From Azolla caroliniana (Eukaryota > Plantae > Polypodiophyta), in contig JBHGNT010000022.1 in NCBI GenBank assembly GCA_043228905.1, forward strand, positions 11,160,001-11,224,000: 64,000 nt of DNA, in the 5' to 3' direction. The notes beneath the pieces are model-generated. The model was given only the letters and a program-made list of their open reading frames with translations. It was not told the DNA's origin and did not search any database. The translations under genes were made by a program, and so were the position numbers. Positions 1 to 43,498 of this stretch are shown piece by piece. How positions within the stretch are numbered: position 1 is the stretch's first letter; each line of letters begins with the position of its first letter.

Positions 1-2653
1 GATGCCGACATACTTCCCGCATGACAATTTCGGCGGTGTCTTCACTAGATATTTCTTTAGTACATGGTAAGAAATGAGCCATCTTCGTATATCGATCCAC
101 CACTGTGAGAATCGCACTGAATCCCTTAGAGACTGGAAGATCTGTAATGAAGTCAAGAGCAATGGATTGCCATGGCTTGCTTGGAATTGGTAATGGTTCT
201 AATAAACCATATGGATGATGTCTTGGCATTTTCGCTCTGCAGCATGTATCGCAAGTCCGAACAAAATCTTCGACAAATTGTCGCATACGGGGCCACCAGA
301 ATGATCGTTGTACTAAATCTAATGTTTTAGTACTACCAAAATGTCCTGCTGTATATGTGTCATGGCAGTTTTGTACTACTCGAAGGCGGCAAGAACCATT
401 AGGAACATACAAAAGTTCTTTAAAGAAGAGTAATCCATCACAGTATTTGAATTGCCGATAATCCGTACCTGGTGATTGTGATTGTGAACATGACGCTCGA
501 GAGGGGTCAATTTGTGCTAGTATAGCTTGGGCGAAAGCGTCAGTCTTCAAGTCCTCACGTATAGTATTGGTAATGTCGGAATCCACGGGCATGTCAAAGA
601 TCTGTGCTGCTTGCAGTCGTGCTGGACCCAAGATTACTTGCTTCTGGTTATCGAAAGCTGGCTCACCGGGACGTGGTGTTAGATACGAACGCCGTGATAA
701 TGCATCTGCCTTCCCTTGGTGCTTCCCCGGACGATATGTAATTTTGAAGTCGAAGCGTGTGAGGAAGTGGGCCCACCGAGCTTGACGTCGATTCAGTACA
801 CGAGCATCTTGAAAGTAGGCAAGGTTCTTGTGGTCACTGAATACAGTGACCTGATGAGGAGATCCCTCCAGGAAATGCCTCCATTGCATAAAAGAATCAA
901 CTATTGCTAATAGCTCTTTATCATGAATTTCGTAGTTGATTTCGGCGGCGTCAAACTTACGGGAGTGGAAAGCCACAGGATGTAGCTTCTCGTCGTTACC
1001 CTGTTGTGACAGAATGCTCCCCAATGCGAAATCCGATGCATCAGCTTCGATAATGAATGGTTTTTCCGGATCCACATGACCTAAAATTGGAGCTGATGTA
1101 AACGCCTTCTTAAGACTCTCGAAAGCCATGTCCGTCTCTTTAGACCAAATGAATGATTGTCCCTTCCTGGTGAGCTGTGTGAGAGGCAGCACAATTTTTG
1201 AGTAATTTTGTATGAACTTCCGGTAGAAATTTGCAAAGCCTAGGAAGCATTGCACATCCCGCACCGAACGCGGAGTGTGCCATTCTATCACCGTTTTGAC
1301 CTTGGCTGGGTCCATAGATATGCCTTCTGAGGAGATGACATAGCCGAGAAACTCCACTTGGTTGCACCCGAAACTACATTTCTCTAACTTTGCATACAGA
1401 CCATGTTCTCGAAGTCGTTTTAGTACTAATAGTACATGAGAATCATGTTCTTCTTGGGTCTTTGAATAAACCAGTAGATCATCCAAATAGATGATCAAAA
1501 AATCATCCAAGAGATCTCGAAATATATCATTCGCCATGTGCTGGAAGACTGCCGGCGCATTAGTGAGTCCGAACGGCATGACCGTATACTCGAAGTGCCC
1601 ATATCTGGTGCGAAACGCGGTCTTCCATTCATCTCCTGGTCGGATCCGTACGAGGTTATAGGCTCCTCGTAAGTCGATCTTCGTGAAGAACCTGGCACCG
1701 TTGATCCGTTCTAAAAGACTTGAGATAAGGGGAAGAGCATACCTATTTCTTACTGTGACCTTATTCAAGCCACGGTAATCTACAACGAGTCGAAGCGAGC
1801 CATCTTTTTTCTTGACGAAGAAAATGGGTGCGCCGGCTGGAGATTTCGAATGCCGAATGAAACCGTTCTCCAAATTCTCCTCTATATAGGCTCGAAGGAC
1901 TTCTAGCTCGGTTGGTGACAAATTGTAGATCGGCCCCCATGGCGGCTCTTTTCCCGGTTGTAAGTCGATGGCGCAGTCGTACGGCCGATGATGAGGAAGT
2001 GTGTTGGCTTGTACTTTATCGAACACATCAGCATACTGACGATACTTCTCGGGAAGTTGAACGATGGACTCCTCTTTGGTGGTGCTGGAGGGTTGTACTG
2101 ATATTGCAAAGAGAAACATTTCCTCCTTGCGCCCTTCCTCACGCAACTGACGTAGCGAAATGGTTGCAACCTTCTGGGTAGATCCTTGGGTTTGTCGCAA
2201 CCGGATTTCCCTTGTCCTCCAATCTATGTCTGGGTCATGTAACTCGAACCATGGTAATCCTAAAACTATGGGATGTTCTGGAATACTAATAATATTAAAT
2301 GATACTACACATGTTAAGTTATCTAGGACAATATTAACGGGTTCCGACTCTTCTATGATATTACCAGAAGCAATGGGACGACCATCAATGACTACTACTG
2401 AGGCTGGACATGGGAGCTTTCTGAGAGATATCTGATGAACTCGGGCAAAATTCCTATCCATGAAGCAAGAATTAGCTCCAGAATCTAGAAGGGCTAAGGT
2501 ATGTACTGGAGGGGTACTTTTAGTACTAACTGCTACTTGGACTACGAACACATCACTAACTTGCTTAGAGGGAATGGAACCACTAATGGGCTGCACAGAT
2601 CTAGGGCTGTCCAACCAAACGGCTCCTATTTTGGCTGGACTTAGTCGTTTAAC
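1..2653 (-). CDS. pol: Gypsy pol polyprotein (PR-RT-RH-INT), -1 frame relative to gag, truncated by window edge
   Basis: LLDSGANSCFM (~2460-2490), YLDD (1478-1489) and the integrase His (341-343) fall in one frame. The ORF track lists no closed ORF in that frame, which is consistent with no stop before the edge. Confidence 0.9.
2601..2653 (-). promoter_or_regulatory. -1 programmed ribosomal frameshift signal (G_UUA_AAC, 6-nt spacer, stem-loop/pseudoknot)
   Basis: Heptamer at 2653-2647, spacer GACUAA, 11-bp stem GUCCAGCCAAA/UUUGGUUGGAC. The -1 frame leads directly into LLDSGA. Confidence 0.85.
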
Positions 2654-3810
2654 TCTTCTTCTAATTGGCTAAGGACATCAAATTTGTTTGCGAGATTCGG
2701 ACTATTAGTACTATTAGGACTATTATGACTATGAGGATTATCAGAGATTCCTACTGAAATAGACTCGGGTTTAGTATAGTCAGAACTAACAATGACTTGG
2801 TTTACCTGCCTTCTTGGTCTATGGGGACAGTTTATCGCGATATGCCCTGGTCCACCGCAATAAAGGCATAATCGGTTTGTTCGGCGTCGTTGCTTTTCCT
2901 CCTCCGATAGCGGCCCACGACGACGTGTAGTGTCAATTTCCATTGGAGTTGGAGTACTTACTGGAGGCGCATTATGTGACTCCCTTTGAAAAGGTTTCGC
3001 TACCACTGAGGCATAGGTAGGCTCGGATCTTGCCCTCGGCATCTGAAATTGTCGTTCCGAACGTCGCTCGAAGAGGCGGTTGTCACATCTGACCGCTCGA
3101 CTGATTGCTTCTGTTAATGATTTTGGCTCTTCAGGGAAAGTCAAGAGTAAATCCTTGACATCGTTGCGTAGACCATAGCGGAACTGCTCCATCAATGCTT
3201 GATCATCCCAGGGGATATCGGCGGCGAGTAGGCGGAAATCTGCAGCATATGCGGAGGCTGGACGGTCACCTTGGCGTAATCGCCGGATTTTGTTGATTGC
3301 AGTCCTTATGCTGTCAGTATCTCCAAAACATGCTTTAAACTCACTTATGAATTCTTCAAAATTATTTAGTACTGGAGATTCCTTTTCTAGTAGCGGAGCG
3401 AACCATGCTAATGCTGAGCCATTTAACAACGTGCCTACTAAACCCACTTGTGATGCATCGGTGGGATATCGGGACGGATGCATTTGAATAACTAACCGTA
3501 CCTGGTTAAGAAACCCTCTAAACTGCGATCGCGTTCCATCGAACTTTGTGGGAAGGCCAATCTTGGGTTCTTTATGAATCCCTTGTGCTCCGTGCCCTTG
3601 TTGTTGCATTGCTACGATGGTTGCTTCGAGTTGTTGCACGCGTAACGCAAGTTCCCCATGCTGTTGTTGCGTTTGCTGCTTTTCTAAGGAAATTTGCTGA
3701 AGATCCCCCAACAAGCGTTGATTTTCTTGTTCCAAAGCATGAAACTTCTCTTTCAAGCATTGAAATTCCGAGAAAACGGATTGATACTCTTCAGCGCTAA
3801 CGGTGGCCAT
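2641..3810 (-). CDS. gag: Gypsy Gag (coiled coil, retrotransposon capsid domain, CCHC zinc knuckle), 389 aa
   Basis: PTKFDGTRSQFRGFL, LRQGDRPASAYAADF, PTPMEID and CLYCGGPGHIAINC, typical of Tf1/sushi/PEG10-like Gag. Confidence 0.95.
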   Translation of the reverse strand: MATVSAEEYQSVFSEFQCLKEKFHALEQENQRLLGDLQQISLEKQQTQQQHGELALRVQQLEATIVAMQQQGHGAQGIHKEPKIGLPTKFDGTRSQFRGFLNQVRLVIQMHPSRYPTDASQVGLVGTLLNGSALAWFAPLLEKESPVLNNFEEFISEFKACFGDTDSIRTAINKIRRLRQGDRPASAYAADFRLLAADIPWDDQALMEQFRYGLRNDVKDLLLTFPEEPKSLTEAISRAVRCDNRLFERRSERQFQMPRARSEPTYASVVAKPFQRESHNAPPVSTPTPMEIDTTRRRGPLSEEEKQRRRTNRLCLYCGGPGHIAINCPHRPRRQVNQVIVSSDYTKPESISVGISDNPHSHNSPNSTNSPNLANKFDVLSQLEEELND

Positions 3811-4029
3811 GGGATGAAGGAAAAGGGAAATAAGAGACTAGTAGGAAAGGAGAGAGACAGAAGGAAGAGGGAGACTAGTAGGACCAAAATCGGTTCAAAC
3901 TGTCAGGAACTCTATTAAGGCAGAGAAGGAATTAGTACTAAAAGAAGGATTAGTACTATTGTTGGGGAATAGTACTAAGACAGAGAAGGATTAGTACTAT
4001 GAGAGGTGTCGAACTTTGAGAGAAGGAAT

Positions 4030-4105
<76 letters not shown>

Positions 4106-4224
4106 TGATGCGAAAGATATATGTATTATATGACGGAAGATATACAACAGTAGTTAGAAGGCTTAAGACTGGCGTTGAACCGATTTGGTTCGAACTAATG
4201 CCTTGCGCCTCCTTTTATAGTGTC

Positions 4225-4272
4225 TTCAGGAATACTCCTGAAGTTTCTAGAATGTTCCAGAGAAATCTGGAA
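4225..4272. promoter_or_regulatory. Heat-shock element array in LTR U3
   Basis: Ten pentamers in 5-bp phase: TTC GAA CTC GAA TTC GAA TTC GAG ATC GAA (7 perfect nGAAn/nTTCn), directly upstream of TATA. Confidence 0.8.
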
Positions 4273-4323
4273 TATACATCAATTTCCTAATAAAACCTAA
4301 ATGAAAATAATATCCTTCAAATT

Positions 4324-4391
4324 ACAACTCATAACCTAATGGTAAAGTCTCGACCCGTGTAACAAAAGGTTATGGGTTCGAGTCTAGTTGT
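4324..4391 (+). other. tRNA-like Pol III cassette (A box/B box) antisense within LTR U3
   Basis: A-box-like TAACCTAATGGTAAAG at 4332, B box GGTTCGAGTC at 4375, tRNA-like spacing (45 nt from T8-equivalent to T54-equivalent). Cloverleaf imperfect. Confidence 0.6.
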
Positions 4392-4409
4392 TCGAGTCTA
4401 GTTATGACA

Positions 4410-6112
4410 CTTACATCCCAATATGGTGGTTGTAACTTGCACAATTGTGACATAAGCCACAAATTGATACAAGTGGCGGTGGTGTTGTGCGCAAAGATGT
4501 AGAACTCAAATCTATGAGTAAAACATCAATAGGGGAACTCATGTGGTTTTACTCGAGTTGTAAGGCTCGATAATATGAGTTAAACCTAGATGAGCCGTTG
4601 GAAAAAATCGTTCAAAAAACGGCACGATGCCCACTCAATATTAAAAAATAGTCTACATGAATCGTTATACCATTAAACGTACGTAAATAGTGTAGATGAA
4701 CTTAAAATAAGGACAAGAAAGAGAGTTAATTGTGGGTGGGTAAATGACAATTACTAGAAAAGCATACAAAAGTGAAACGAAAATTTATGTAATTAGAAAT
4801 GAATTAGAATAATAATCAATTAGGTGTATGAATCATTAAGCGTGCCTTAAGGTATGAAACCCTAAGGTAGTCAACATGCACCTCATCAAGACCACCACAT
4901 CTCCCTAGAATTGGCCAATTGATGGCTCAATAAAAAGTAAAGTGGCATAGGTAAGCGGCATATACCTCGTTAAGGCCACAACATCCCATAGAATCGGCCA
5001 AGTTATGGCTCAATAGAGAGTAGAGTGGCATAGGTAGGCGACATACACCTCGTCATGGCCACAACATCCCATAGACTCGGCCAAGTGATGGCTCAATAGA
5101 GAGTGGACTGGCATAGGTAGGCAACATACACCTCGTCATGGCCACAACATCCCATAGACTCGGCCAAGTGATGGCTCAATAGAGGGAAGAGTGGCCTACT
5201 CAACATCGAATGCAAAAGGTCCATGAAGTGAGAATGTGCGAGTAGGGCAAACACGCTCAACCCAATGCACAACAATAATTAATATCGTAAGAGAAGGCTC
5301 AAGAGAGGGGAGAGTGGGAGATACATCGCAATATGCAAAAGGCCATGAGTTGAGCGTGTGCGATTAGTGCAAACACGCTCGGCCCAATGCACAATAATAA
5401 TTAAAATCGTATCGTGGTAGAAAGAATAAAGAAAAGAAAAGAAAACGTAATACAAATTTGATTCGACCTTAAAGAACGCATCATCGAAAGAAGAGAGAGA
5501 TCGAGAAAGAAGAATACCAGGTTAAGAATGTTGTTTTGATCCTGTGAAGACCATGACAAGCCTTGTTAGATCCCCATCGCTCACACGCAAAAAACATCAA
5601 AACAACAAAAAAAATTGTTAGTAAATGCTTTGATACCACTGTTAAGAGTCTATTACTAATCAATAGACCAAACTAAAGTAAAAGAAGGAAAATAGAATGG
5701 ATAGAATAACCCGTTCCCGCTTACCACCCTTGAGCTATGATCTAGACATAGCCAACCTACCACCGACGTCCCATACCGCCGGATATTAGGATGACTAATA
5801 CCTTGGAGGAGATAAACACGATCATTGAGACGAAAGCCTAGCCCGCACCACCGGTGTCTAAGACATCAGCCTTCTGACATAATGTCATTATGAGGGTAGC
5901 TAAGCCTCATATTTATACCTTTTCCTAGGCCCCTTGAATAGATGTGCCTTTCTAAAAGGCTCTCCATTCATTGGTTGTCCAAATCATGATAGTGCATGCA
6001 CTTATCATTCCTTCTATCCAATCATTAGTCCCTTTTTTAACATTAGGGAACATACCCTTCACTAATGTAAATATTGGTGACCTACCCTCACCAACATTAT
6101 GTGTACATAACA
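4410..6112 (-). mobile_element. LTR retrotransposon remnant: 5' LTR (5640-6112), tRNA-iMet PBS and non-coding leader with tandem repeats
   Basis: TGTTA...TAACA termini and PBS TGGTATCAAAGCA (5626-5638 on minus). Right end abuts the YVDD codons of a Copia RT; left end is interrupted by the Gypsy LTR. Confidence 0.75.
4880..5412. repeat. Tandem repeats: ~3.5 x 83 bp, then 2 x ~123 bp
   Basis: TGGCATAGG recurs at 4943, 5026 and 5109; GCAAACACGCTC...CCCAATGCACAA occurs twice. Confidence 0.85.
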
Positions 6113-7080
6113 TATACGTGGATGATTTGGTAATCAGAGTACTAAATCTAGCCGAAGTGAATACGGTGAAATCACTCCTATCCGGCATATTTGAAATGAA
6201 AAATATACAGGAGCTCCATTACTTCCTTGGCATCGAAGTAATTCTGACACTAGTCGGGATCTTGATCTCTCAACAGCACTACGTTCTCAACTTACTCTAA
6301 AAGTTCGGAATGAACGAGTGCAAACCTATGTCTACTCCTCTTGACCGTAATGTCAAGCTCGATGTCGATTCCGGCACAGCCGAGTGTGAGCCAACTCAGT
6401 ATCGCCAACTGATCGACAGCCTCATCTACCTAACCATCACACGAGCTGACCTCAGCTACTCTGTCAGCCTACTTAGCCAATTCATGCTGAACCCACGGAA
6501 TCTCCATCTCGATTGTGCTAAGAGGATACTTCGGTATGTCGGTGGTACAATGGATTACGACATTCTGTACAAGTTGAATACGCTTATTCAACTCGAAGGG
6601 TACACAGATGCGGATTGCGCCGGATATAAGGACGATAGATGATTGACATCTGAATTCGTCTTCTCCCTCTCCAACAGAGCAATCTCGTGGAGCAGCAAGA
6701 AGCAACCGACAGTTGCACTATCGAGCACGGAGGCTGAATACAGGGGTGTGGCAATCACAGCATGCAAAGTCGTATGGCTGAAGCGCGTACTAAATGATCT
6801 TGGTGTACCCATCAATGATCTAATTTGCTTATACATCAACAACATGAGCAATATCTACCTCGCAACCCCGTATTTCACACACGGACTAAACACATCGAAG
6901 TGCACTACCACTTCATTCGCGAGCGCGTTCTAGCCGGCGAAATCGATCTACAACACATCAATACACACCTTCAAGTTGCGGATATCTTTACGAAGACCTT
7001 AGGCATCGACAAGCTTGGGCAATTCGCATCTGACCTTGGTCTCACGATATCTACGTTGCCGAGCTTGAGGGGGAGTACAA
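6113..7080 (+). mobile_element. Degenerate Ty1/Copia RT C-terminus and RNase H
   Basis: YVDDLVI, GYTDAD, SWSSKKQPTVALSSTEAEY, RTKHIEVHYHFIRE and ADIFTK, with stops and frameshifts. Same family as 34320-38188. Confidence 0.92.
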
Positions 7081-8340: not shown

Positions 8341-8474
8341 CCTTCAGGGGAAAAGACCAACACAAATATGTATGTATATATAGGCCCTTTTGGAGAAGAA
8401 GAAGAAGGAAACAGATATACATACATACATACATATAGGCCTCTGTTTTTTGTTCTTCGTTCACAAAAACAGTC

Positions 8475-10688
8475 ATGGGGAAGAACAAAGAAGCTTCAGC
8501 AGCAGCAGCACAGCCCCCCAAAGGCTCCTCCAAAGACAGCAAGAAAGAATCCCAACAACCCAAGAAGGAGAAGCTGTCTGTCTCGGCTTTCCTCGCTGGC
8601 CTCGATAGCAAGAGTAAAGACAGCCTCCCCGGTGCCAAACCTAAACCTAAACCTAAGCAAGCCAAAGCTCAAGATGACTACATCTCCGGTCTCGATCTGC
8701 CCCCTTCCGATGACGATGAAGAAGATGAAAGACCTGAGATCAGCGAAGAAGAGATGGAGAAAAGAAGGCACCAGGCTGAATTTGGTCCCGGGATGGGCGC
8801 GGCGTCAGAGAAGGATGCCAAGAAAAAGGAGAAGAAGGATCAGATGGCTGCCCACGTGGCCGAGATAGCGAAGAAAGAAGCTCTCAAGGATGATAGGAGT
8901 GCTTTCTCTGTTGTGGTCGGGTCCCGGACCTCAATCCTCGACGGTGAAGATGGCGATGGCGATGCCAATCTCAAGGACATCTCGGTGGAGAATTTCTCGG
9001 TCTCGGCACGAGGTAAGGAGCTCTTTAAGAATGCTTCGGTTAAGATTGCTCATGGTCACAAGTATGGACTTGTGGGTCCTAATGGGAAGGGTAAATCTAC
9101 CCTTCTCAAGCTTCTTGCATGGCGACAGCTCCCAGTACCAAAGAATATCGACATTCTATTGGTTGAGCAAGAGGTCGTGGGTGATGAGAGAACCGCTTTA
9201 GAAGCCGTCGTATCGGCCAATGAAGAGCTCATCAGGCTCCGAGAAGAGGCAATAAGGTTGCAGAACCTCACCCTTCTAGATGATGATGACGAAGAAGAGG
9301 AGATGAATGGTAAGGAGAAGGATCCCGAGATATATACAGCAGGTGAGAAGTTAACCGAGGTCTATGAAAAGCTTCAAATGATGGGTTCAGATGCAGCCGA
9401 AGCACATGCTTCCAAGATATTGGCTGGATTAGGGTTCACCAAGGCCATGCAAGGGCGGGCCACCAAATCCTTTAGTGGAGGGTGGAGAATGAGAATATCG
9501 TTGGCCCGTGCTCTCTTTGTTCAACCCACCTTGTTGCTGCTCGACGAACCCACCAACCACTTGGATCTACGAGCTGTGTTGTGGTTAGAGGAGTATCTGT
9601 TGAGGTGGAAGAAGACCCTCGTGGTGGTTTCTCATGATCGCGATTTTCTCAACTCCGTCTGCACGGACATCATCCACCTCCACGACGAGAAATTGCATCT
9701 CTATCGGGGAAATTTTGACGCTTTTGAAGTGGGTTATGAGCAAAAACGCAAGGAAGTGAACAAGAAGTTTGAGACATATGATAAGCAAATAAAGGCAGCG
9801 CAAAGGAGCGGAAGCAAAGCCCAACAAGACAAGGTGAAAGATCGAGCAAAGTATGCCGCGGGGAAAGAAGCTCGATCGAAGGGAAAAGGAAAATCTGGGG
9901 CAGAGGAGGATGAGACCCCTATTGTAGAAGTACCTAAGAAATGGAAAGATTACAGTGTACAATTTGACTTTCCTGAACCAACTGAGCTGACGCCACCTCT
10001 TCTCCAACTCATCGAGGTTCATTTTAGCTATCCTGGGAGGGAAGATTTTGCTCTCAAGGGTATCGATGTCGGCATTGATATGGGCACCCGAGTAGCCATA
10101 GTGGGCCCGAACGGAGCAGGGAAATCCACTCTACTTAACCTGCTTGCAGGTGACCTAGAGCCATTACAAGGGGAATGTCGAAGAAGCCAGAAGCTCCGGA
10201 TCGGGAGATATTCTCAACATTTTGTGGATTTGCTTACTATGGATGAGACCCCAGTGCAATATTTGTTGAGGCAATATCCGGATCAAGAAGGGCCAAGCAA
10301 ACAAGAAACAGTTCGAGCAAAGTTGGGGAAGTTTGGCTTACCGAGCCATAATCACCTTACACCTATCATAAAACTCTCTGGAGGGCAAAAGTCCAGGGTT
10401 GTGTTCACGGCCATTTCAATGGCAAAACCTCATATTTTGCTCTTAGATGAGCCTACCAATCACCTGGATATGCAAAGTATCGATGCTTTAGCGGATGCTT
10501 TGGGTAAGTTTACAGGTGGAGTAGTGCTCGTGAGTCATGATTCTCGCCTGATCTCTCAAGTTTGCGAAGATGAAGAGAAGAGCGAGATATGGATTGTTGA
10601 TAATGGGACTGTAAGGAAATATCCAGGGTCTTTTGAGGAATATAAGACAGAGTTACAAAGGGAGATCAAAGCTGAAGTGGATGAGTAG
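8475..10688 (+). CDS. ABCF4: ABC transporter F family member 4-like (soluble twin-ABC ATPase), intronless, copy 1
   Basis: 737-aa ORF with two Walker A motifs (GPNGKGKST, GPNGAGKST), signatures FSGGW and LSGGQ, LLLDEPTNHLD twice, and no TM domains. N-terminus MGK...SKDSKK...KEKLSVSA is like plant ABCF4. Confidence 0.95.
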   Translation: MGKNKEASAAAAQPPKGSSKDSKKESQQPKKEKLSVSAFLAGLDSKSKDSLPGAKPKPKPKQAKAQDDYISGLDLPPSDDDEEDERPEISEEEMEKRRHQAEFGPGMGAASEKDAKKKEKKDQMAAHVAEIAKKEALKDDRSAFSVVVGSRTSILDGEDGDGDANLKDISVENFSVSARGKELFKNASVKIAHGHKYGLVGPNGKGKSTLLKLLAWRQLPVPKNIDILLVEQEVVGDERTALEAVVSANEELIRLREEAIRLQNLTLLDDDDEEEEMNGKEKDPEIYTAGEKLTEVYEKLQMMGSDAAEAHASKILAGLGFTKAMQGRATKSFSGGWRMRISLARALFVQPTLLLLDEPTNHLDLRAVLWLEEYLLRWKKTLVVVSHDRDFLNSVCTDIIHLHDEKLHLYRGNFDAFEVGYEQKRKEVNKKFETYDKQIKAAQRSGSKAQQDKVKDRAKYAAGKEARSKGKGKSGAEEDETPIVEVPKKWKDYSVQFDFPEPTELTPPLLQLIEVHFSYPGREDFALKGIDVGIDMGTRVAIVGPNGAGKSTLLNLLAGDLEPLQGECRRSQKLRIGRYSQHFVDLLTMDETPVQYLLRQYPDQEGPSKQETVRAKLGKFGLPSHNHLTPIIKLSGGQKSRVVFTAISMAKPHILLLDEPTNHLDMQSIDALADALGKFTGGVVLVSHDSRLISQVCEDEEKSEIWIVDNGTVRKYPGSFEEYKTELQREIKAEVDE

Positions 10689-16589: not shown

Positions 16590-18824
16590 CTACTCATCCA
16601 CTTCAGCTTTGATCTCCCTTTGTAACTCTGTCTTATATTCCTCAAAAGACCCTGGATATTTCCTTACAGTCCCATTATCAACAATCCATATCTCGCTCTT
16701 CTCTTCATCTTCGCAAACTTGAGAGATCAGGCGAGAATCATGACTCACGAGCACTACTCCACCTGTAAACTTACCCAAAGCATCCGCTAAAGCATCGATA
16801 CTTTGCATATCCAGGTGATTGGTAGGCTCATCTAAGAGCAAAATATGAGGTTTTGCCATTGAAATGGCCGTGAACACAACCCTGGACTTTTGCCCTCCAG
16901 AGAGTTTTATGATAGGTGTAAGGTGATTATGGCTCGGTAAGCCAAACTTCCCCAACTTTGCTCGAACTGTTTCTTGTTTGCTTGGCCCTTCTTGATCCGG
17001 ATATTGCCTCAACAAATATTGCACTGGGGTCTCATCCATAGTAAGCAAATCCACAAAATGTTGAGAATATCTCCCGATCCGGAGCTTCTGGCTTCTTCGA
17101 CATTCCCCTTGTAATGGCTCTAGGTCACCTGCAAGCAGGTTAAGTAGAGTGGATTTCCCTGCTCCGTTCGGGCCCACTATGGCTACTCGGGTGCCCATAT
17201 CAATGCCGACATCGATACCCTTGAGAGCAAAATCTTCCCTCCCAGGATAGCTAAAATGAACCTCGATGAGTTGGAGAAGAGGTGGCGTCAGCTCAGTTGG
17301 TTCAGGAAAGTCAAATTGTACACTGTAATCTTTCCATTTCTTAGGTACTTCTACAATAGGGGTCTCATCCTCCTCTGCCCCAGATTTTCCTTTTCCCTTC
17401 GATCGAGCTTCTTTCCCCGCGGCATACTTTGCTCGATCTTTCACCTTGTCTTGTTGGGCTTTGCTTCCGCTCCTTTGCACTGCCTTTATTTGCTTATCAT
17501 ATGTCTCAAACTTCTTGTTCACTTCCTTGCGTTTTTGCTCATAACCCACTTCAAAAACGTCAAAATTTCCCCGATAGAGATGCAATTTCTCGTCGTGGAG
17601 GTGGATGATGTCCGTGCAGACGGAGTTGAGAAAATCGCGATCATGAGAAACCACCACGAGGGTCTTCTTCCACCTCAACAGATACTCCTCTAACCACAAC
17701 ACAGCTCGTAGATCCAAGTGGTTGGTGGGTTCGTCGAGCAGCAACAAGGTGGGTTGAACAAAGAGAGCACGGGCCAACGATATTCTCATTCTCCACCCTC
17801 CACTAAAGGATTTGGTGGCCCGCCCTTGCATGGCCTTGGTGAACCCTAATCCAGCCAATATCTTGGAAGCATGTGCTTCGGCTGCATCTGAACCCATCAT
17901 TTGAAGCTTTTCATAGACCTCGGTTAACTTCTCACCTGCTGTGTATATCTCGGGATCCTTCTCCTTACCATTCATCTCCTCTTCTTCGTCATCATCATCT
18001 AGAAGGGTGAGGTTCTGCAACCTTATTGCCTCTTCTCGGAGCCTGATGAGCTCTTCATTGGCCGATACGACGGCTTCTAAAGCGGTTCTCTCATCACCCA
18101 CGACCTCTTGCTCAACCAATAGAATGTCGATATTCTTTGGTACTGGGAGCTGTCGCCATGCAAGAAGCTTGAGAAGGGTAGATTTACCCTTCCCATTAGG
18201 ACCCACAAGTCCATACTTGTGACCATGAGCAATCTTAACCGAAGCATTCTTAAAGAGCTCCTTACCTCGTGCCGAGACCGAGAAATTCTCCACCGAGATG
18301 TCCTTGAGATTGGCATCGCCATCGCCATCTTCACCGTCGAGGATTGAGGTCCGGGACCCGACCACAACAGAGAAAGCACTCCTATCATCCTTGAGAGCTT
18401 CTTTCTTCGCTATCTCGGCCACGTGGGCAGCCATCTGATCCTTCTTCTCCTTTTTCTTGGCATCCTTCTCTGACGCCGCGCCCATCCCGGGACCAAATTC
18501 AGCCTGGTGCCTTCTTTTCTCCATCTCTTCTTCGCTGATCTCAGGTCTTTCATCTTCTTCATCGTCATCGGACGGGGGCAGATCGAGACCGGAGATGTAG
18601 TCATCTTGAGCTTTGGCTTGCTTAGGTTTAGGTTTAGGTTTAGGTTTGGCACCGGGGAGGCTGTCTTTACTCTTGCTATCGAGGCCAGCGAGGAAAGCCG
18701 AGACCGAGAGCCTCTCCTTCTTGGGTTGTTGCGAGTCTTTCTTGCTGTCTTTGGAAGAAGTGGAAGGCGCTCCTCTTCCATCATCTGCGAGTCTCTCTTG
18801 CTGGACCTTCTTCTTGGGACCCAT
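16590..18824 (-). CDS. ABCF4: ABCF4-like copy 2, intronless, with a foreign NRPA2-like N-terminus
   Basis: 744-aa ORF nearly identical to copy 1 from SSKDSKK onward. First 18 codons align with NRPA2 exon 1. Confidence 0.95.
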   Translation of the reverse strand: MGPKKKVQQERLADDGRGAPSTSSKDSKKDSQQPKKERLSVSAFLAGLDSKSKDSLPGAKPKPKPKPKQAKAQDDYISGLDLPPSDDDEEDERPEISEEEMEKRRHQAEFGPGMGAASEKDAKKKEKKDQMAAHVAEIAKKEALKDDRSAFSVVVGSRTSILDGEDGDGDANLKDISVENFSVSARGKELFKNASVKIAHGHKYGLVGPNGKGKSTLLKLLAWRQLPVPKNIDILLVEQEVVGDERTALEAVVSANEELIRLREEAIRLQNLTLLDDDDEEEEMNGKEKDPEIYTAGEKLTEVYEKLQMMGSDAAEAHASKILAGLGFTKAMQGRATKSFSGGWRMRISLARALFVQPTLLLLDEPTNHLDLRAVLWLEEYLLRWKKTLVVVSHDRDFLNSVCTDIIHLHDEKLHLYRGNFDVFEVGYEQKRKEVNKKFETYDKQIKAVQRSGSKAQQDKVKDRAKYAAGKEARSKGKGKSGAEEDETPIVEVPKKWKDYSVQFDFPEPTELTPPLLQLIEVHFSYPGREDFALKGIDVGIDMGTRVAIVGPNGAGKSTLLNLLAGDLEPLQGECRRSQKLRIGRYSQHFVDLLTMDETPVQYLLRQYPDQEGPSKQETVRAKLGKFGLPSHNHLTPIIKLSGGQKSRVVFTAISMAKPHILLLDEPTNHLDMQSIDALADALGKFTGGVVLVSHDSRLISQVCEDEEKSEIWIVDNGTVRKYPGSFEEYKTELQREIKAEVDE

Positions 18825-18904
18825 CTCTGGATGGGGTCTCCCTCAATCAGCAACAGGGAGGGCGAGGCAGGGCCTTGAAGGGCAAGAGGAAGAAGCAGAA
18901 GCAC

Positions 18905-18950
18905 AGAGAGAGTGTGTGTGTGTGTGAGTGAGTGAGTGAGTGAGAGAGAG

Positions 18951-18988
<38 letters not shown>

Positions 18989-19115
18989 GAGCGTTATTTT
19001 TCATGAGGTGTTTATCAATATAGAGAGAGAGAGAGTTTGTGTGTGTGTGTGTGTGTTTTGAGTGTTATTTTTCATGATGGGGTTTATCAATATATATATA
19101 TAGAGAGAGAGAGAG

Positions 19116-19165
<50 letters not shown>

Positions 19166-19204
19166 GAGTGTGATTTTTCATGAGGTGTTTATCAATATAG
19201 AGAG

Positions 19205-19241
<37 letters not shown>

Positions 19242-19685
19242 TTTGAGTGTTATTTTTCATGAGGGGTTTATCAATATATATATATAGAGAGAGAGAGTGT
19301 GTGTGTGTGTGTGTGTGTGGTTTGAGTGTTATTTTGCATGAGGTGTTTATCATAGAGAGAGAGAGTGAGAGAGAGATTGTGTGTGTGTGTGTGTGTGTGT
19401 TTTGACTCTCGAGTGTTATTTTCCATGAAAGGGTTTATCGAGAGAGAGAGAGAGAGAGAGAGAAAGAAAGTGTGTGTGTGTGTGTGTGTGTGTTATTTTT
19501 CATGAAAGGGTTTATCGAGAGAGAGAGAGAGAGAAAGAAAGTGTGTGTGTGTGTGTGTGTGTTATTTTTCATGAAAGGGTTTATCAATAGAGAGAGAGTG
19601 TGTGTGTGTGTGTGTGTGTGTGGAGAGGGAAAGAGAGAGAGAGAGAATGTGTGTGTGTGTGTCTGTCTGTGTGTTTTGCGTGTTT
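18905..19685. repeat. Compound minisatellite: about nine units of (GT)n-TTTGAGTGTTATTTTTCATGAGGGGTTTATC-(TA)n-(GA)n
   Basis: Core recurs at ~18985, 19056, 19161, 19241, 19320, 19400, 19490 and 19560, with a further unit at 23185-23240. Confidence 0.9.
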
Positions 19686-22600
19686 TTTTTGTTTTTTTTT
19701 TTCCAAAAACATATCCTCCATTGGTATTAAAGAAATCAATATACAAAACAGTCCGCTATTACAATCAATATTGCAACATATTTAAGTAAAAAACTTCTTG
19801 AACAGTCATGTAGCTTCAGCAATCCAGCCACCTTTATCGTCCATATTAATCAAGGAATTACCACCAATGACCTTTATTAATGGAGTCTATGCGACATATA
19901 TTTCTAAGCATTCCGTCTCTCATTTTGATTAGCAAACTACCACCATTAGAAATCCTTGCAATCTGATCGAAACTTTGTCGATGAATTCCAATGGTTGGCG
20001 TCGATGAATTGTTGCCACCGAAATCATAAGACCACTGAAGAGTCTGTTTTCTAGTATCTTTACAACATTCCATGAAGCCGCATCTTGTTAAGTAGACACT
20101 CCCTCGAGGTCTTTCCAAGTCCACTTAATAACAACCTTTGATAAGGACCACAAAATAATGTAGTGAACCATGTATTTACTCATCATTCCTTCAGTTTTTT
20201 ATGCAGTTTGCTCTTCCTTTGAACTTGTTAACCGAGCAGCTCATTGTGTTAAAACTCATTCTTGATCTGTAGTTGAGAACTTAAGAGTTCAAATGGATAT
20301 TCCACTACCTCCCAATGTTAAGAGCCCACGAAACATGTTTGACTGGATTATCTTCTTCATCGATGTCTCTTAGCTCAGCAGTGCAAAGCCATCGTTGATG
20401 GGAATGCTGAAATCCCCAAACCTTAGCAATATTGAGTGAAGTTGAAGTTGAATTGCAACCAAAAACGAATGCAGGATGTGGACTTATCAACGTAGAAGCC
20501 TTCGAAGACACAGATGCTCCAAAAGACGAATTGGTAACATTCTTTTCCGCCAGAGTTCTTGCATTTTAGAACTCAGACCTGGTTGTCCACCCTGTTTGTT
20601 GGTAGTCCTGCTTAACATATATACCATGTTTGTCCACAAGATATTGCTTTTTGGCAAATGTTTGTATATCAAGGCCTTCTTCATCTGTTGCGGTTGAAGA
20701 CACCAAACAGTCCATAATGCACATGTCATGATTGGCTGCCTAGGACAACCCCCATCTATCCTCTCCCATGACGAAACGACCATGTCCTTCATCTCCACGA
20801 TCATTGAAAATATATTTGTATTGAATCTCCTTCGCATCAACACTCTGGTTTATCACAACAGCCATGCGCCGGTTACACCACAATCATCTACCCAGTCAAA
20901 ATTATTTTATTAAAAATAAATTAGATAGTCGGCTTCGACCCCCCCACCATCTTCACTCATCCTTATCAGAGAATAATTTCTTCATTCAATCCACATCAGT
21001 CATCTCACCGATTATCATCTTGTTAATGCCAATGTCCACGAAAATCCTGTGTTAACAACCAAAAATTAGTCCAAAAGTTTCCTCACCCACTCCTGATAGT
21101 CGGCTTCGACCCCCCCACCATCTTCACTCATCCTTATCACAGAAAAATTTCTTCATTCAATCCACATCAACCATCTCGCAAATTAGCATCTTGCCTTGCC
21201 AATGTCCCCACAAATCCTGTATTAACAACAAAAAATTAGTGTAAAAGCTTCCTCACCCACTCGTGATAATCGGCTTCGATCTCCCCACCATCTTCACTCA
21301 TCCTTATCACAAAAAAAATTTCTTCGTTCAGTCCACATCAGCCATCTTGGCAATTAGCGTGTTGCCAATGTCCACGAAAATACTGTATTAACAACAAAAG
21401 ATTAGTCTAAAAGTTTCCTCACCCACTCTTGATAGTCGGCTTCGACCCCGCCACCATCTTCCCTCATGCTTATCACAAAAAATTCTTCAATCAGTCCACA
21501 TCAGCCATCTTGCCGATTAGCATATTGCCAATGTCCACGAAAAACCTGTATTAAAAACAGAAATTAGTGTAAAAGTTTCCTCATCCAGTCATGTTAGTCG
21601 GCTTCGACCCACCCACCATCTTCACTCATCCTTATCGCAGAAAAATTTCTCCATTCAGTCCCTATCAGCCATCTCGCCGATTAGCATCTTGCCAATGTCC
21701 ACGAAAATCCGCATCAATCAGTTGATTGTCATTGAGTATCCCCAATAGCTTAAACCTACAGAAACAAACATGAATGCACACTCTCGTGTCCTTATGAAAA
21801 TCATTATCAATCATTCCTCTCTAAGGTAAAGCATCATTATTAGTCATCCCTATCTAAGGTAAAGCATCTGCTATATTATCCGCACCAATCATATCAGAGA
21901 TTACCGCCAAAAGCTTATTTTATGAAAAGACTCTTGCTATGTGCCAGAATCACCTCTTCCATGTTGATTTATGTTGTGTGCTCTAAGGACGGTGCTGGTG
22001 GCGGGAACAACCAACGAGGTGGTACGTAATTCCACTTGACATTAGCCTCTGCATCCAACATGATAAGAATAGATGACCAAACTCTTCTAATGCTCCTTCT
22101 TTTTCGACTAGTTGTGTCTCCTGATCCCTTACAACTGTCATAATCACCTTTAACCGTATGTACCAATAGGTCCCAGAAAGACTTAAGTTGTTCTACAACA
22201 TGAGTATTTTCATCCTTGTATAGCTTGGAACACCTAGCTTTCCAAAGAACCCATAAACCCAAAGAGGAAACAATTTGCCAAACATAACTCTGCGAGAAGA
22301 ACTTGATTCCCTGCAAGGAACTTGAGCTAGCATATACTTGAAAACTTCTCACATGTAAAGACTAAGAAGAATGCTGATAATGATAAAAGGCCAATTGTTG
22401 ATCCAACATTCCCCAAAAGATTGCACCCCACGTGAAGAAAGCCGAGGTATAATTATGGCCTAAAAGCCTAAGAATTCGAAACCAAAACCTTTTAGCGAAC
22501 AAACATTCCCAAAATACATGATGCAATGACTCAGATGAAAACCCACACATAACACATGACCGATCACGCACTGAACCCCTGAATAGTTCACCTACTGGCA

Positions 22601-25130: not shown

Positions 25131-26409
25131 GTCTAACCATTTGCATGCACTTCAAGTATAGTATAGTCAAGGTAATTGAAAACTTAAAGTGAGCATTTAC
25201 ATATATGCCATTGTTTTGGCTCACAAACAAAAAGTGTATTGTCGTATACCAAAGGGGATGAATAATTCTATCTAATCGCATTTCATTAAATTTTGAAGCT
25301 AGATAAATCAATTATAAAATACATGGCATGCACTAACACTTCTTACGTGATAAGGATGCAAAGGACAAAGAAAGAGGAATATTTAAGAAGAGGAGAACAT
25401 GAAGGAAAGCATGGAAATCCACAACATCAAAAGGTGTGTTAGCCTTTATTTATGAGCCAAGGCCACCCAAAATCAAAGTTCTACCTCTTAGTTTACATCT
25501 CATTTCTTTGTGCTCATTTCTTGCATTCACCATCATAGACACTCCTCACAATCACTATCATGATTATTTTGTGTTTTTGTTGTAATCCTATCTTGTAAAG
25601 GGGTTTTCTATTAAAACTAAGGTTATTGGGTTTTAATCTTGGTGTTATTATAATAGATGACAGGAACTACACGCTCCGATGAACACCGCTCGGCCACAAC
25701 CGAGTCTAAGATCAAACACAGAAAACGAGAATGAATACACACGACACAAAGGAGAGAAAAGTACACAAGATGTTTAACATGGAAAACCCTGAGAGGGAAA
25801 AACCACGGGAGTCCACAAACTCCAAACTATCACTATATCACAATGATTACAACAATGAGCTCACGGAGGCAACGACCTCGCGCTCACGATCTTTGCCACA
25901 AGCGGCGGTTACAACAGAGGCAACGACCTCTCTATCTCTCTCTCTCTCTCTCTCTGTACACTGTTACGCGCTTTCTAGTCTTGCGCCAACAAGAATGACA
26001 ACAACTCTATTCTCTGTTTGCCCTAAGTCATATTTATACTAATATGACTTTTCGGCTATTTACAAATATAGCCCCGATGGACTCTCAGAAACATATTTAC
26101 AAATATGTCCCTTCATCTGGCGAGCACTCCTCACCGGGCCTGCATCATCCGGCGCTTGCCGGGCACACGTCATCCGGTTCTCACCAGGTCTCCACCATCC
26201 GGCTCGTGCCGGGTACTCCACATCTGGTTCTCACTGGGTCTTCACCATCCGGCTCATGCCGGATACTCCACATCTGGTTCTCACCGGGTCTTCACCATCC
26301 GGCTCATGCGGGTTCTCCACATCCGTTTCTCACCAGGTCTTCACCATCCAGCTCATGCCGGGTACTCCACATCCGGAGAGACCTGTTTCCTAACAAACTC
26401 CCCCTTCAC

Positions 26410-30438: not shown

Positions 30439-30736
30439 TTTCTGTGTCGCTTCGCTCTGATACCAGTTTGACAGGAATTACACGCTTCGATGAACACTGC
30501 TCGGCCACAATCGAGTCTAAGATCAAACACAGAAAATGGGAATGAATACACACGACACAAAGGAGAGAAAAGTACACAAGATGTTTAACGTGGAAAACCC
30601 TGAGAGGGAAAAACCACGGGAGTCCACAAACTCCAAACTATCACTATATCACAATGATTACAACAGTGAGCTCACGGAGGCAATGACCTCGCGCTCACGA
30701 TCTTCGCCACAAGCGGCGGTTACAACAGAGGCAACA

Positions 30737-30783
<47 letters not shown>

Positions 30784-30954
30784 CACTGTTACGCGCTTTT
30801 TAGTCTTGCGCCAACAAGAATGACAACAACTCTATTCTTTGTTTGCCCTAAGTCATATTTATACTAATATGACTTTTCAGCTATTTACAAATATAGCCCC
30901 GATGGACTCTCAGAAACATATTTACAAAGATGTCCCTTCATCCGACGAGCACTC

Positions 30955-31550: not shown

Positions 31551-31649
31551 CTAGGGACCTGTTTCCTAACAATAGACAAGTGTACTTAGCCCTAATATTG
31601 TGTTAATCATTTGAGCGTTATCGTGCTCAGAGAGAGAGGGAGGGAGGGA

Positions 31650-33007: not shown

Positions 33008-33141
33008 ATGTAAGTACCATAGGTCAAACAATAACCATATATGTGTCATGAAGGTAAGTACCATAGGCCAAAAAAGAACTATATATGTGTCATGAAGGTA
33101 AGTACCATAGGCCAAAAAAGAACTATATATGTGTCATGAAG
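33008..33141. repeat. 3 x ~44-bp tandem repeat overlapping the start of the second Tcn1-like LTR
   Basis: GTAAGTACCATAGGCCAAAAAAGAACTATATATGTGTCATGAAG repeated. Confidence 0.85.
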
Positions 33142-33154
33142 ACATACATTTTAG

Positions 33155-33220
33155 CTTATGAGGAGTCGAACCCACAACTTCTTGGTCTGTGTTCAACCTT
33201 TAACCATTGTAATAGCATAT
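33155..33220 (-). other. tRNA-like Pol III cassette antisense within LTR U3
   Basis: Minus strand A-box-like TATTACAATGGTTAA (from 33214) and perfect B box GGTTCGACTCC (33172-33162) at tRNA-like spacing. Confidence 0.6.
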
Positions 33221-33269
33221 ATTATGTGTAGGTAAAATAATTATATTTTTAGTTATTACAAGATATTTG

Positions 33270-33355
33270 GAATATTCTAGAACATTCTTGAATATTTCAC
33301 GATTATATTTATTATCAAAAATATCTAAATTATTCTAGAACATTCTAGAATACTC
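33270..33355. promoter_or_regulatory. Two heat-shock elements in LTR U3
   Basis: GAAtaTTCtaGAAcaTTCttGAA (33270-33292) and TTCtaGAAcaTTCtaGAA (33333-33350), upstream of CTATAAATA at 33365. Confidence 0.8.
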
Positions 33356-34319
33356 CATAAGGATCTATAAATAGGTGTTTATACATTCATCACAACTTAT
33401 TCGGTTCAACACCAGTCTTTAGCCCTTAGCCTACTCTTTGTAACATTGTTTTCTCATAATATAATATCATTTCCATTTTCTCTCTCTCTCTCTCTCTAAC
33501 TCACGAGTCACGACAGTTTGAACTGAATTCTTTCTTTTTCCTTCTTTATTTTTCCCTCTCAGTTATGGAGTCCGTTAGCAAGCAAGAATATATGCGTGTC
33601 CTTTCTAAATTCGACATGCTCACTACTAAGTTTGTGGCATTAGAGCAAGAAAATCAATGGCTACTCTAGGATCAACAACACGTGAGTACCGAGAAAGCTC
33701 ACCAATATGAGGAGTTATCACAACAGGTTCATCAACTCGAGGCTACTATATTAGCATTACGAGAACAAGCGGTGGGGGTTCAAAACTTGCCAGGGAACCA
33801 AAGATTAGCCTCCCTGCCAAGTTTGATGGTACAAGATCTCTGTTCCGAGGTTTCTTGAATCAAGCCCGTTTGGTGATTCAGTTACATCCCAATCGGTGTC
33901 CAACCGATGCTGCTCGTGTGGGATTAGTAGGAACCGTGCTAAGCGGTACAACATTAGCATGGTTTGCACCACTTCTTGAGAAGAAATCAACGTTGTTGGA
34001 GGATTTCGGGGCATTTGTTGAGTTTCAAGCTAGTTTTGGAGACACCGATAGCACTAGGACGACAATAAACAAGTTTCGAAGACTCCGACAAGGAGATCGT
34101 CCCACTTCAGCTTACGCAACAGATTTCCATCTCTTGGCATGCAACATCCCTTGGGATGAGGCAGCCTTAATGGATCAATTCCATCAGGGTTTGCATAACG
34201 ATGTCGAAGATTTTCTTCTTACTTTCCACGAAGATCCGAAGTCTCTTACATAGGCAATTAGTCGAGTTATATGATGTGATAATCACCTATTTGAGCGACA
34301 TTCTGAACACCAACAAAAT

Positions 34320-37300
34320 GTCCCATTCGACAAAGAAGGTGACCAAACCTTTATTAAAAATGTCTTGCATGTACCAACCATTACGAAGAATTTGGTCTCC
34401 GTCGGCCAAATTGATGAGCAAAGGATACAAGTACGATTTAATCAAGGCGGTTGCTTCACCGAAAAAGAGGGCCGACTCATCACTCGCGAACGATGTCGTG
34501 ATGTTTTCGACACATAGTGCGAAAACCACCCTCAAAAGAGAATAAAATAGTAGTCCAAATAAACTAATGTTGTTAAATCAACTATAGTAATAAATGAAAG
34601 GATAAAAAGTTAGAAGCAGTTTTCGAAAGTAGACAAAAATAGAGAAAAAGATAGGAAAAGAAAAGCTAGCCGTGGATATGAGGAGCAAGGTCGAGTAAAA
34701 AGCTTGTAATTTCCTCATCCAATGTCCAAATTAGAAAAGGAAAGATTCATAAGAAAGCTAACAGAAATAGCTTTCTAAGAGTAGCTTGCATGTCAGATTT
34801 GACGTTACGGAACAGAAATAGTGATAAAAAGAAAACTCGACTCATATAGTACTCTAAGCCTTCTTACTTATCAGACTAATTAAGTATTATTCAATATCGC
34901 ATAATCTCCTACTCGAAGATTTGCTTATGCATAAATGTAATTAACTATTATTGGATCTCGTATATTACCAATTTACTCTTATTAGAGGGAAATCTCTCGT
35001 CTCTAAGCTTAAAGTGCATTAAGCGTCAAACCCTAAATCTTTCCGGTCCAACACCCCGGCGGTTCCGCCTCACGATCCGCACTTACTGGCGGATTTTCAC
35101 GACAACGAAGAGAGGGCCCAATGTTTATTCTCGACTCGCACGAGATGAAATCGGCCATGTTCGCAAAGGGCACGAAAGCCGATTCCGACATAGAGTTATG
35201 GCAGAAGCGAATTGGCCATATCAACCTCCAAAAGCTCAAGGCAATGCAATCGAAAGGAGTCATCATCGGGCTCCCGACATTCAAGGAGAAAGAGATTGAA
35301 GGTGTGTGTGCTGCTTGCCAATTCGGCAAGCAACATCGGCACCCATTTCCAAAGGAGCGGAACGTGAGTAAAGGCGTACTCGACGTAATTCATTCTGATG
35401 TATAGGGTCTGGCTCTGACGACTACATTCGCCGGATGCCGATATTATACGGCCTTCATCAAAGACTTTTCTAGGCACACCTGGATCTACCCCATGCGGCA
35501 AAAGAGCGAAGTGTTCAGACACTTCCAAAAATTTAAGAATGAAGTCGAGAAAGCCACGGGCCGACATGTACGATGTCTTCAGTCGGATGGAGAAAAAGAG
35601 TACTTCTCCGACGAATTTACAACGTATCTCCGAAAGGAAGGAATCCAACAAGAATTCTCGTGCCGACACACACCTCAACAAAATGGTGTAGCTGAATAAA
35701 AGAATCAACATATCCTCGAAGTAGCACGGGCCATGATGAATGAAAAGCATATACCAAAAGCGTATTGGGCAGAAGCAGCTAAGACAAAAATATACCTCAT
35801 GAATCGGTGTACGACATCGGGTGTGCACAAACTTACTCTACACGAGAAGTTTTTCGGAAAGAAGCCGGACCTATCACATGTTCGGGTATTCGGCTCCATT
35901 GCGTACGTGCACATCCCCGACGAGAAACGACAAAAGCTCAACTTGAAGTCGGAGAAATGTATCCTCGTAGAATACGCACTGGAGCAAAAGGGGTACAAGT
36001 GCTATAACCCCTCAACTCGAAAATCTCGAGTAAGTCGAGACATTGTTTTCGACGAGTCAGCATCTTTGTACGCACCAGAGACAACTTCGACTCTGATTCC
36101 GCTCAACCCGGAATCCGCCGAAATAGAGATAGAAGCCGGAGATCAGCTCACACGCATGTTCGAAGAAAGCCTAATTATGACAAGGCTTAATGGGCCACAA
36201 GAGCCTCCAAGCAATCAAAGCACATCTTGGCCGAGTCTGGAGCTGGACAAAGGGAAGGCGAAAATGCCAGAGTATGAAGACGATCACTTCGACGACAACA
36301 AATCGACTCACTCCCTCGATAGTGAGTTCGAAGGCCTTGACATCCAGACAAATGGAACAAAAAAAGCCTTAGTATCCGCAAACGAGAAGCTCCGCCGATC
36401 CACCCGTTAAAAGAACCTCGTAAGCCGATTTGGCTGCAACGATTATATGGCATACCATTACGCCTTTATGAGGAAGGTGGCAATAGTACGGGAGCCGAAA
36501 ACGTTTTCCGAAGCCGCGAAGGACCCTAGATGGGTTGAAGCGATGAACGAGGAGATGCAAGCACTCTCCAAAAACAAGACGTGGGATCTTGTCCCCCACT
36601 CACCGCACAAGAAGGCGATGGGTTGCAGATGGATCTACATGGTGAAGTATAATGTTGACAACTTTGTAAACCACTACAAATATCGACTCGTAGCAAAAGG
36701 ATACGCACAAACGCATGTAGTCGACTATGAAGAGACATTTGCCCCGATGGCAAAGATGACAATTATGCGGACCGTGATCGCACTCACAACGACGAAAGGG
36801 TGGCACCTCCACCAGATGGACGTCAAGAACGCCTTTCTTCAAGGCAAATTAGAAGAGGAGGTGTACATGGTAGAACCACCTGGCTTCGAATCCAGCATTC
36901 ATCCGAAACCCGTATGCCAACTCAAGAAGCCTCTTTACGGCCTTAAGCAAGCACTCGTGCTTGGCATTTGAAGATTATGCAATATCTTCATCAAATCGGC
37001 TTTTGAATGTCAAAATCTGACAATTCCCTCTACGTACGAAATGACTCTAGAAGCTCGATTGTCATCATCCTATATGTGGATGATCTGGTGATTAAAGGAG
37101 AAAGTTCAGTCAACATCAACAAGTTGAAATCCCTCCTCTCCAACAAATTCGAGGTGATGGACATGAAGGACCTTCATTACTTCCTAGGCATCGAAGTAAT
37201 TCGGATTCCGACTGGCATTATGATCTCTCAATGGCACTACATTCTCAACTTATTATACAAGTTCAGGATGACAGAGTGCAAATCTATGGCAACCCCTCTC

Positions 37301-43376: not shown

Positions 43377-43439
43377 CTTATATACCTACTAATAAATAGT
43401 GAGAATTACCCCTTTTCAGTCTTTCTCACTATGTATCAA

Positions 43440-43452
43440 CATATATACATAG

Positions 43453-43498
<46 letters not shown>

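Follow-up and report, generated by a model that had tools for sequence, protein, structure and literature searches.

Among the closest described counterparts of the LTRs analysed here are those of the TRIMp3 elements Helenus, Ajax and Cassandra, which, according to the available part of their description, hold tRNA-derived sequence with conservation focused on the A and B boxes, contain no functional tRNA and are proposed to have arisen by SINE capture (PMC10886601). TRIMp3 elements are non-autonomous, approximately 0.3-1.3 kb in length, tRNA-primed and thought to be transcribed by Pol III (PMC10886601), whereas the elements described below are autonomous, measure 5.7-5.8 kb, possess a self-complementary PBS and carry boxes that face outward and lie upstream of a TATA promoter. 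The accessible text of the same article also relates that autonomous partners of TRIMs have been argued to need Pol II and need not share LTR sequence with them, and that 'not a few LTRs' among the Repbase entries include a tRNA fragment, undescribed as such. The Tcn1 clade of chromoviruses has the chromodomain, the gag/pol overlap, the 5-bp TSD, the size and the self-priming PBS in common with the present elements, but no tRNA-like cassette or HSE array is described for it in the available portions of two reports (PMC2864245, PMC6317226). Tf1 is likewise self-priming, and the corresponding part of PMC7175516 describes no A/B-box cassette. An HSE array in the LTR upstream of TATA is also known from ONSEN and other heat-responsive Copia elements, which are of the angiosperms and for which heat induction has been demonstrated (PMC7329337, in the part available), whereas the elements described here belong to Gypsy and are known from sequence. 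A literature search, outside which lay Repbase entries and subscription journals, found no description of outward-facing boxes in autonomous Gypsy LTRs. What appears to be new is the antisense A/B cassette in such LTRs, boxes in LTRs having already been published for TRIMs, and the function assigned to it below is a putative one.

The window, i.e. the entire 64,000-nt stretch of Azolla caroliniana DNA under analysis, harbours two elements of this kind, A and B; the family letters A to K are labels coined for this analysis, for which a genome of 523 Mb in 1,503 contigs was searched. Element A is a complete Tcn1-type element of 5,832 bp on the minus strand which extends past the left edge of the window, and its frames comprise 398 codons (gag) and 1,201 codons (the overlapping pol). 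Its 5′ LTR (3901..4409) is followed by a gag ORF with a CCHC knuckle (2641..3810) and a pol frame overlapping gag (2..2668) that specifies RT, RNase H and integrase, the SH3 and chromodomain regions being located just beyond the window edge (in L091). The second LTR, 5.3 kb away, differs from the first by 22 gap columns and no substitution, and the family is young and abundant, with 2,245 first-look candidates of which the best 40 are at 91-100%. The 5-bp flanks of element A (4410-4414 and the end of L091) do not match despite the substitution-free LTRs, which recombination between two young copies would explain. Element B, on the plus strand, belongs to an older family with copies 82-93% alike; it is represented by a 5′ LTR (33132..33515) and a gag broken into two frames (33541..34325), no pol having been found downstream within the window, and a 44-bp tandem spans its insertion junction (33043-33131).

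LTR A (read from 4409 to 3901) and LTR B both start with TGTCAT and end in GACA, followed by GTTTGAAC. The original prediction held that the two LTRs differ greatly in sequence yet keep the same order of motifs; each motif was found where it had been placed and in the same order in both LTRs, and the likeness goes beyond order, as the LTRs are homologous, with 72% identity over 108 nt of R/U5 and 34 of 53 positions in the cassette. Elsewhere in the window a Copia element is present at 25658-31650, with LTRs that are approximately 93-96% alike and include a 50-bp tandem array, and more Copia remains lie at 35700-38041, downstream of the element B gag, and at 6113-7080, the latter being 70-74% like 37071-38041. 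An ABC-transporter-type ORF without introns, approximately 750 codons long and specifying two ATPase domains, occurs at 8439-10688 (plus strand) and 16590-18842 (minus strand), the copies forming a 2,100-nt inverted repeat of 100% identity, 5.8 kb apart, which may reflect either a duplication of recent date or an artefact of the assembly. Minisatellite and microsatellite arrays, whose units measure approximately 80, 165 and 123 bp or are 4-nt repeats, occupy 18900-19700, 20886-21700, 38530-41560 and 43400-43900.

The prediction that these elements are Tcn1-type chromoviruses was supported. A chromodomain is present at the integrase end (PF00385, E=3.5e-15) with the Y, W and Y residues of the aromatic cage kept, 5-bp TSDs flank 16 of 18 complete elements, and a 41-residue RT run is identical, as compared by eye, to that of SM-Tcn1. 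The length of element A and its overlapping gag and pol are within the Tcn1 range, which is given as 5.5-9.4 kb in the available text of PMC6317226. The predicted self-primer was likewise substantiated, since 11-13 nt of primer/PBS complementarity was observed in 45 of the 57 sampled LTRs having the R motif, with the primer bases ending 42-45 nt after the start of TATA in these 45 LTRs; the R motif was not found in 13 of the 70 LTRs sampled. In LTR A the TATA box (4213..4219, minus strand) is invariant in 42 copies, the self-primer (4175..4186, minus strand) represents the predicted first 12 or so nt of the transcript and is complementary to the PBS (3887..3900, minus strand), and a (TC)n tract of variable length is located in U5 (4035..4100, minus strand), the corresponding features of element B being a TATA box at 33366..33373, a self-primer at 33399..33409, a (TC)n tract at 33479..33496 and a PBS at 33516..33528, all on the plus strand. 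The motif TCGGTTCAAC is found at 4174-4183 in LTR A and at 33401-33410 in LTR B. Changes in the primer are accompanied by changes in the PBS in A, B, L132, L133, L135 and L136, and a 12-bp helix is predicted to close the leader of A (z=-6.5), the same helix being predicted for B (z=-1.3). In Tf1 of Schizosaccharomyces pombe the first 11 or so bases of the transcript pair with the PBS (PMC7175516, in part), and self-priming has been reported for 83% of Tcn1 elements in the accessible text of PMC6317226; self-priming of the present elements is the Tf1 mechanism, already known for the Tcn1 clade and not new. SM-Tcn1 of Selaginella, published as PBS-less and not self-priming, was seen by eye in the available sequence supplement of PMC2864245 to have a stretch of its 5′ LTR that complements the bases following the LTR, and it has the same R motif as the elements described here.

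The cassette is an antisense A-box/B-box pair at the outer tip of U3. In LTR A the B box (tRNA positions 52-61) occupies 4375..4384 and the A box (tRNA positions 8-19) 4332..4342, both on the plus strand and 33 nt apart, and in LTR B the B box is at 33163..33172 and the A box at 33204..33214, both on the minus strand and 32 nt apart in this copy, distances such as separate the two boxes in tRNAs. Pol III type-2 promoters consist of an A box and a B box 30-60 nt apart; the spacing is 32-34 nt in 18 of 20 LTR representatives and 39-40 nt in the other two. The consensus of such promoters is partly given in the available text of PMC10886601. An AT-rich block that is conserved in the A/C group (4298..4314 in LTR A, minus strand) lies 12-27 nt upstream of the tRNA-like +1 and constitutes a candidate seat for TFIIIB. 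Small LTR-start duplications were noted in passing, one of 14 bp at the start of the B-box region of element A (4390..4403, minus strand), which is present in both LTRs of this copy and missing from most family copies, and one of 11 bp in one subfamily (L011, L014, L021 and L022).

To sample LTRs independently of the cassette, matches to the LTR-end/PBS junction alone were collected (2,335 as compared to 39 in the control) and the first 70 of the 100 listed were examined. The antisense pair was scored in 57 of these 70 LTRs, 55 having it in place at the tip and two at wrong positions, as compared to 2/70 in sense orientation, 5/70 in flanks and 30/1400 in shuffled LTR regions. With 55 antisense cassettes against 2 in sense, a TRIMp3-like placement by which Pol III would transcribe the element is not what these LTRs display. 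The other 15 LTRs include eight with a decayed or partly deleted homologue and seven with none within 1,200 nt; several of these seven are visibly truncated or interrupted, and two have the cassette in their 3′ LTR. Genome-wide, the cassette pattern returned 5,740 matches as compared to 2 in the control, and the LTR end combined with the B box 5,272 as compared to 0, while a lone B box, found nine times in the window against 4.7 expected, constitutes weak evidence. Three of the Copia LTR regions in the window are without a cassette and the fourth has two weak matches, taken as chance; in a viral collection, three distant RT loci were found and a motif scan yielded 120 loci, 0 with a retroelement match and 101 with tRNA genes. 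An element of approximately 1.7 kb (L249/L250, G000:C1:845889-847600) with two Tcn1-type LTRs that bear the cassette was also encountered and is apparently non-autonomous.

The other deep branch of the integrase tree was sampled through a further 30 loci, selected for the resemblance of their chromodomain to that of a distant element. Nine of these loci, of families H and I, pass the strict cassette scan, families G and K have the cassette with a longer spacer, and family J (9/30) has at most a decayed B box. The cassette is present in both deep branches, which show 48-58% identity to one another, in a FastTree phylogeny that is without support values, that excludes loci with no detectable 3′ LTR start or fewer than 250 aligned residues and whose automatic labels miss decayed cassette copies (L274 and L290). 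It was also found in three elements from other samples, L132-L134, with an RT 75-89% identical to that of A, and was absent from L135, L136, L139 and more distant elements.

Thirteen family representatives, hand-chosen, were aligned with the boxes as anchors, which inflates box identity, and gave pairwise identities of 0.87 for A-box positions 14-19, 0.53 for positions 8-11, 0.80 for the B box and 0.84 for positions 44-48, a block not used as an anchor, as compared to a background of 0.28-0.34 upstream, downstream and at positions 26-43. Among these representatives B-box positions 53-56, 58 and 61 are invariant and positions 57 and 59-60 variable, a pattern of fixed and free positions that matches the B-box definition. 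The suggestion that the boxes are selectively retained over the intervening DNA was thus borne out across the 13 families (0.80-0.87 as compared to approximately 0.3). At closer range it held for one box: among 42 LTRs of the A/C type, diversity is 0.03 in the B box, 0.20 in the A box and 0.14 in ordinary U3, and when the boxes are pooled they vary no less than the spacers (Fisher p=1.0). This variability of the A box within the A/C group, and the loss or decay of the cassette in J, L136, L135 and L139, would be expected if the cassette were the inherited remnant of a captured SINE or tRNA, or a set of sense-strand sites for Pol II factors, with no role for TFIIIC. The apparent mobility of U3 pieces between lineages, as exemplified by a 26-nt motif common to family F, L133 and the Phygy-like LTRs described below (92-96%), also fits such an explanation. 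We regard it as unlikely, however, as the boxes stand out from background identity in families 48-95% alike in integrase, as the fixed and free positions follow the B-box definition, and as orientation and upstream position are the same in the Tcn1-type and Phygy-like lineages.

The canonical boxes and their spacing, together with the conserved AT block at the would-be TFIIIB site, are equally what an active Pol III promoter would require, and a short, outward, rod-folded RNA transcribed from it might regulate the element or seed SINE-like offspring. For families A/C, E, H and I a rod-like hairpin spanning the cassette is predicted (z -2.2 to -6.4), pairing is better between arms of the same family than after arms are exchanged (p=0.013-0.018), G-U pairs survive one-sided changes more frequently on the tRNA-sense strand (20 as compared to 12 cells), and the cassette is closely akin to a SINE-like repeat. 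No such hairpin was found, however, in families B, D, F, G and K, in L132 and L134 or in either Phygy-like cassette, double-sided changes were seen in 0 of 15 and 0 of 21 predicted pairs, and the partner arm is not more conserved than the loop (p=0.26). A conserved rod hairpin as a general function was rejected, being confined to 5 of the 13 representatives with no compensatory pairs. A common RNA product is not indicated, because a T4 terminator follows the B box, within 32 nt, in only 5 of 20 LTR representatives, although flanking DNA could supply one. We consider a regulatory or SINE-seeding RNA to be rather improbable as the role of the cassette. Because the hairpin is restricted to some families and double-sided compensation is lacking, the common denominator is a DNA motif, not an RNA fold; a pure DNA model nevertheless leaves the hairpin of A/C, E, H and I unexplained.

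Neither ARAGORN nor Rfam called a tRNA in the cassettes of LTRs A and B, and the acceptor, D, anticodon and T stems do not rise above a swap null in the 13 representatives (p 0.07-0.40), on which grounds a functional tRNA was rejected. All four family-H cassettes tested were matched by the Rfam tRNA model over positions 1-71, antisense to the LTR, with 20.7-27.3 bits (cut-off 29). No single parent tRNA stood out, the best matches being scattered over isotypes, with Ile(TAT) best for H and I, in a host set that lacked many isotypes. The host genes for tRNA Lys(TTT), Arg(TCT), Ile(TAT) and Thr(TGT) occur in tandem clusters with many variant copies (L214-L233, L366-L381). Sequence comparison identifies the cassette as tRNA-derived, and the cassettes of H, I and L385 are 80-89% like the head of a SINE-like repeat over 72-84 nt, the match extending in I and L385 into the non-tRNA flank. 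This repeat (L334-L363, e.g. G000:C1:6962620-6962892; 813 first-look candidates) is approximately 210-230 bp long, is found free in (GA)n tracts and is sometimes tandem, and its two tRNA-like A/B-box modules face each other. Because the identity is high in one branch and at background level elsewhere, it is indicated that either the capture was repeated recently or the repeat itself arose from an H-like LTR.

The tRNA-like character of the cassette also admits a role in genomic RNA, in which U3 would pair with the D- and T-loop regions of a tRNA and aid strand transfer, dimerisation or packaging; Ty3 reportedly has a bipartite primer site, and HIV-1 is said to have a tRNA-like stretch in U3. 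The orientation of the cassette fits this idea, as does the conserved 44-47 block, which lies outside the usual B-box definition. Pairing with a tRNA is nonetheless very unlikely in our view, as the elements self-prime, complementarity to the 3′ acceptor side is not kept, and none of the host tRNAs of the isotypes at hand matches the sequence between the blocks, the best scores being spread over many isotypes.

The cassette is also found in an unrelated, young, non-chromovirus Gypsy family (L251/L252, L395-L424) with 1.1-kb LTRs, a normal PPT and 2,453 candidates, whose RT is 24% identical to that of element A and has no close match in Tcn1. The PBS of this family looks to be of the tRNA type and is putatively that for tRNA-Trp. 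A 4-bp NCGN TSD was read at 10 insertions, which agrees with the Phygy clade, whose definition includes this TSD and which has been described from Physcomitrella only, according to the available text of PMC6317226. Taken alone, the occurrence of a Phygy-like family would point to a host resembling a moss. All 30 of the Phygy-like LTRs examined, which are the closest matches to one copy and hence not independent, bear two antisense cassettes approximately 180 and 345 nt in, and one sense A/B match further down. Because U3 pieces appear to move between lineages, the presence of the cassette in two of them need not signify two independent selections, and the shared 26-nt motif hints at module exchange rather than pure convergence.

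The HSE-type array behaves as a separate module. At least three alternating nGAAn units are present upstream of TATA in both window LTRs: LTR A has four perfect units at 4239..4258 (minus strand), with imperfect units spanning 4224-4273, and LTR B has two arrays on the plus strand, of five perfect units at 33269..33293 and four at 33332..33351. A four-unit pattern occurs twice in the window, once per LTR, as compared to 0.01 expected. Perfect runs of three to six units are found in A, most of C, B, D, H, L132 and L134 (shuffle p<=0.002), the array is weak in K, E and two C-type copies, F has one distant pair, and none was found in G, I and L133. In the A/C group the four units at the centre follow the canonical pattern in 38-41 of 42 copies, but over ten units the GAA/TTC triplets show no greater conservation than do the n positions (Fisher p=0.74). 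The original prediction that selection has kept the modules as a unit could not be upheld, and cassette and HSE array as a single conserved unit were rejected, since F, G, I and L133 keep the cassette without an HSE array and J and L136 are without a proper cassette. HSF control of the HSE-bearing families is plausible. Heat represses RLG1, the main Gypsy family of Physcomitrium, and induces RLG2, as stated in the part of PMC7466625 available.

A TFIIIC- or Pol III-type element is, as far as can be judged from sequence, the best reading of the cassette. Yeast tRNA genes and TFIIIC act as barriers, and SINEs and tRNA genes at chromatin boundaries likewise place a mobile Pol III-type promoter at a chromatin edge, the difference being that the promoter here lies within the LTR and is copied with it; a role of the cassette as a barrier would rest on this analogy. 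The available part of a study of SINE boundaries names CTCF, not TFIIIC (PMC8136502). We propose that the conserved, backwards, tRNA-derived A/B pair likely binds TFIIIC and may either form a barrier that protects the Pol II promoter of the same element or open the chromatin for it, a proposal which we hold to have about an even chance of being correct. These are chromodomain Gypsy elements with Tf1-type self-priming, and the chromodomain would tend to target their promoter into heterochromatin. The cassette, kin to a free SINE-like repeat, would have been captured from such a repeat, probably more than once, and the fact that only the two boxes, the distance between them and four bases preceding the B box are retained, but not the tRNA stems, suggests selection on protein binding to DNA. 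The promoter would then be shielded by TFIIIC, together with TFIIIB seated on the AT-rich stretch that separates the cassette from the enhancer, and any Pol III transcription would, given the outward orientation, be directed away from the Pol II promoter. The enhancer, which lies between cassette and TATA, is exchangeable, consisting of HSE arrays in some families and of other repeats elsewhere, and the HSE-bearing families may be heat-responsive. Against a barrier stands the fact that the cassette is dispensable, not only in family J, L136, L135 and L139 but also in the published SM-Tcn1, whose U3 has by eye neither cassette nor HSE array in the available sequence supplement (PMC2864245). More tentatively, and with doubt outweighing confidence, Pol III internal promoters may have been captured repeatedly from the SINE-like repeat and fixed, facing outward and ahead of the Pol II enhancers, as a portable TFIIIC barrier to heterochromatin, with U3 parts (barrier, enhancer, TATA/self-primer) traded between Tcn1 and Phygy and more than 5,000 mobile TFIIIC sites as the outcome.

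The capture of Pol III promoters, published for very small, non-autonomous TRIMs, is thereby extended to elements that are autonomous, in which the promoter is turned the other way and its role is likely a different one. Cassette-bearing LTRs can be mistaken for tRNA pseudogenes or SINEs, and their presence would imply that the host genome has TFIIIC-type sites in excess by the thousand. Natural contrasts are provided by families that have the cassette and families that lack it (G as compared to L136, H and I as compared to J) and by families with and without HSEs, and the number of invariant bases is small. It is a question how chromodomain elements that land in heterochromatin stay transcribable, to which a built-in TFIIIC site would be a sharp and testable answer.
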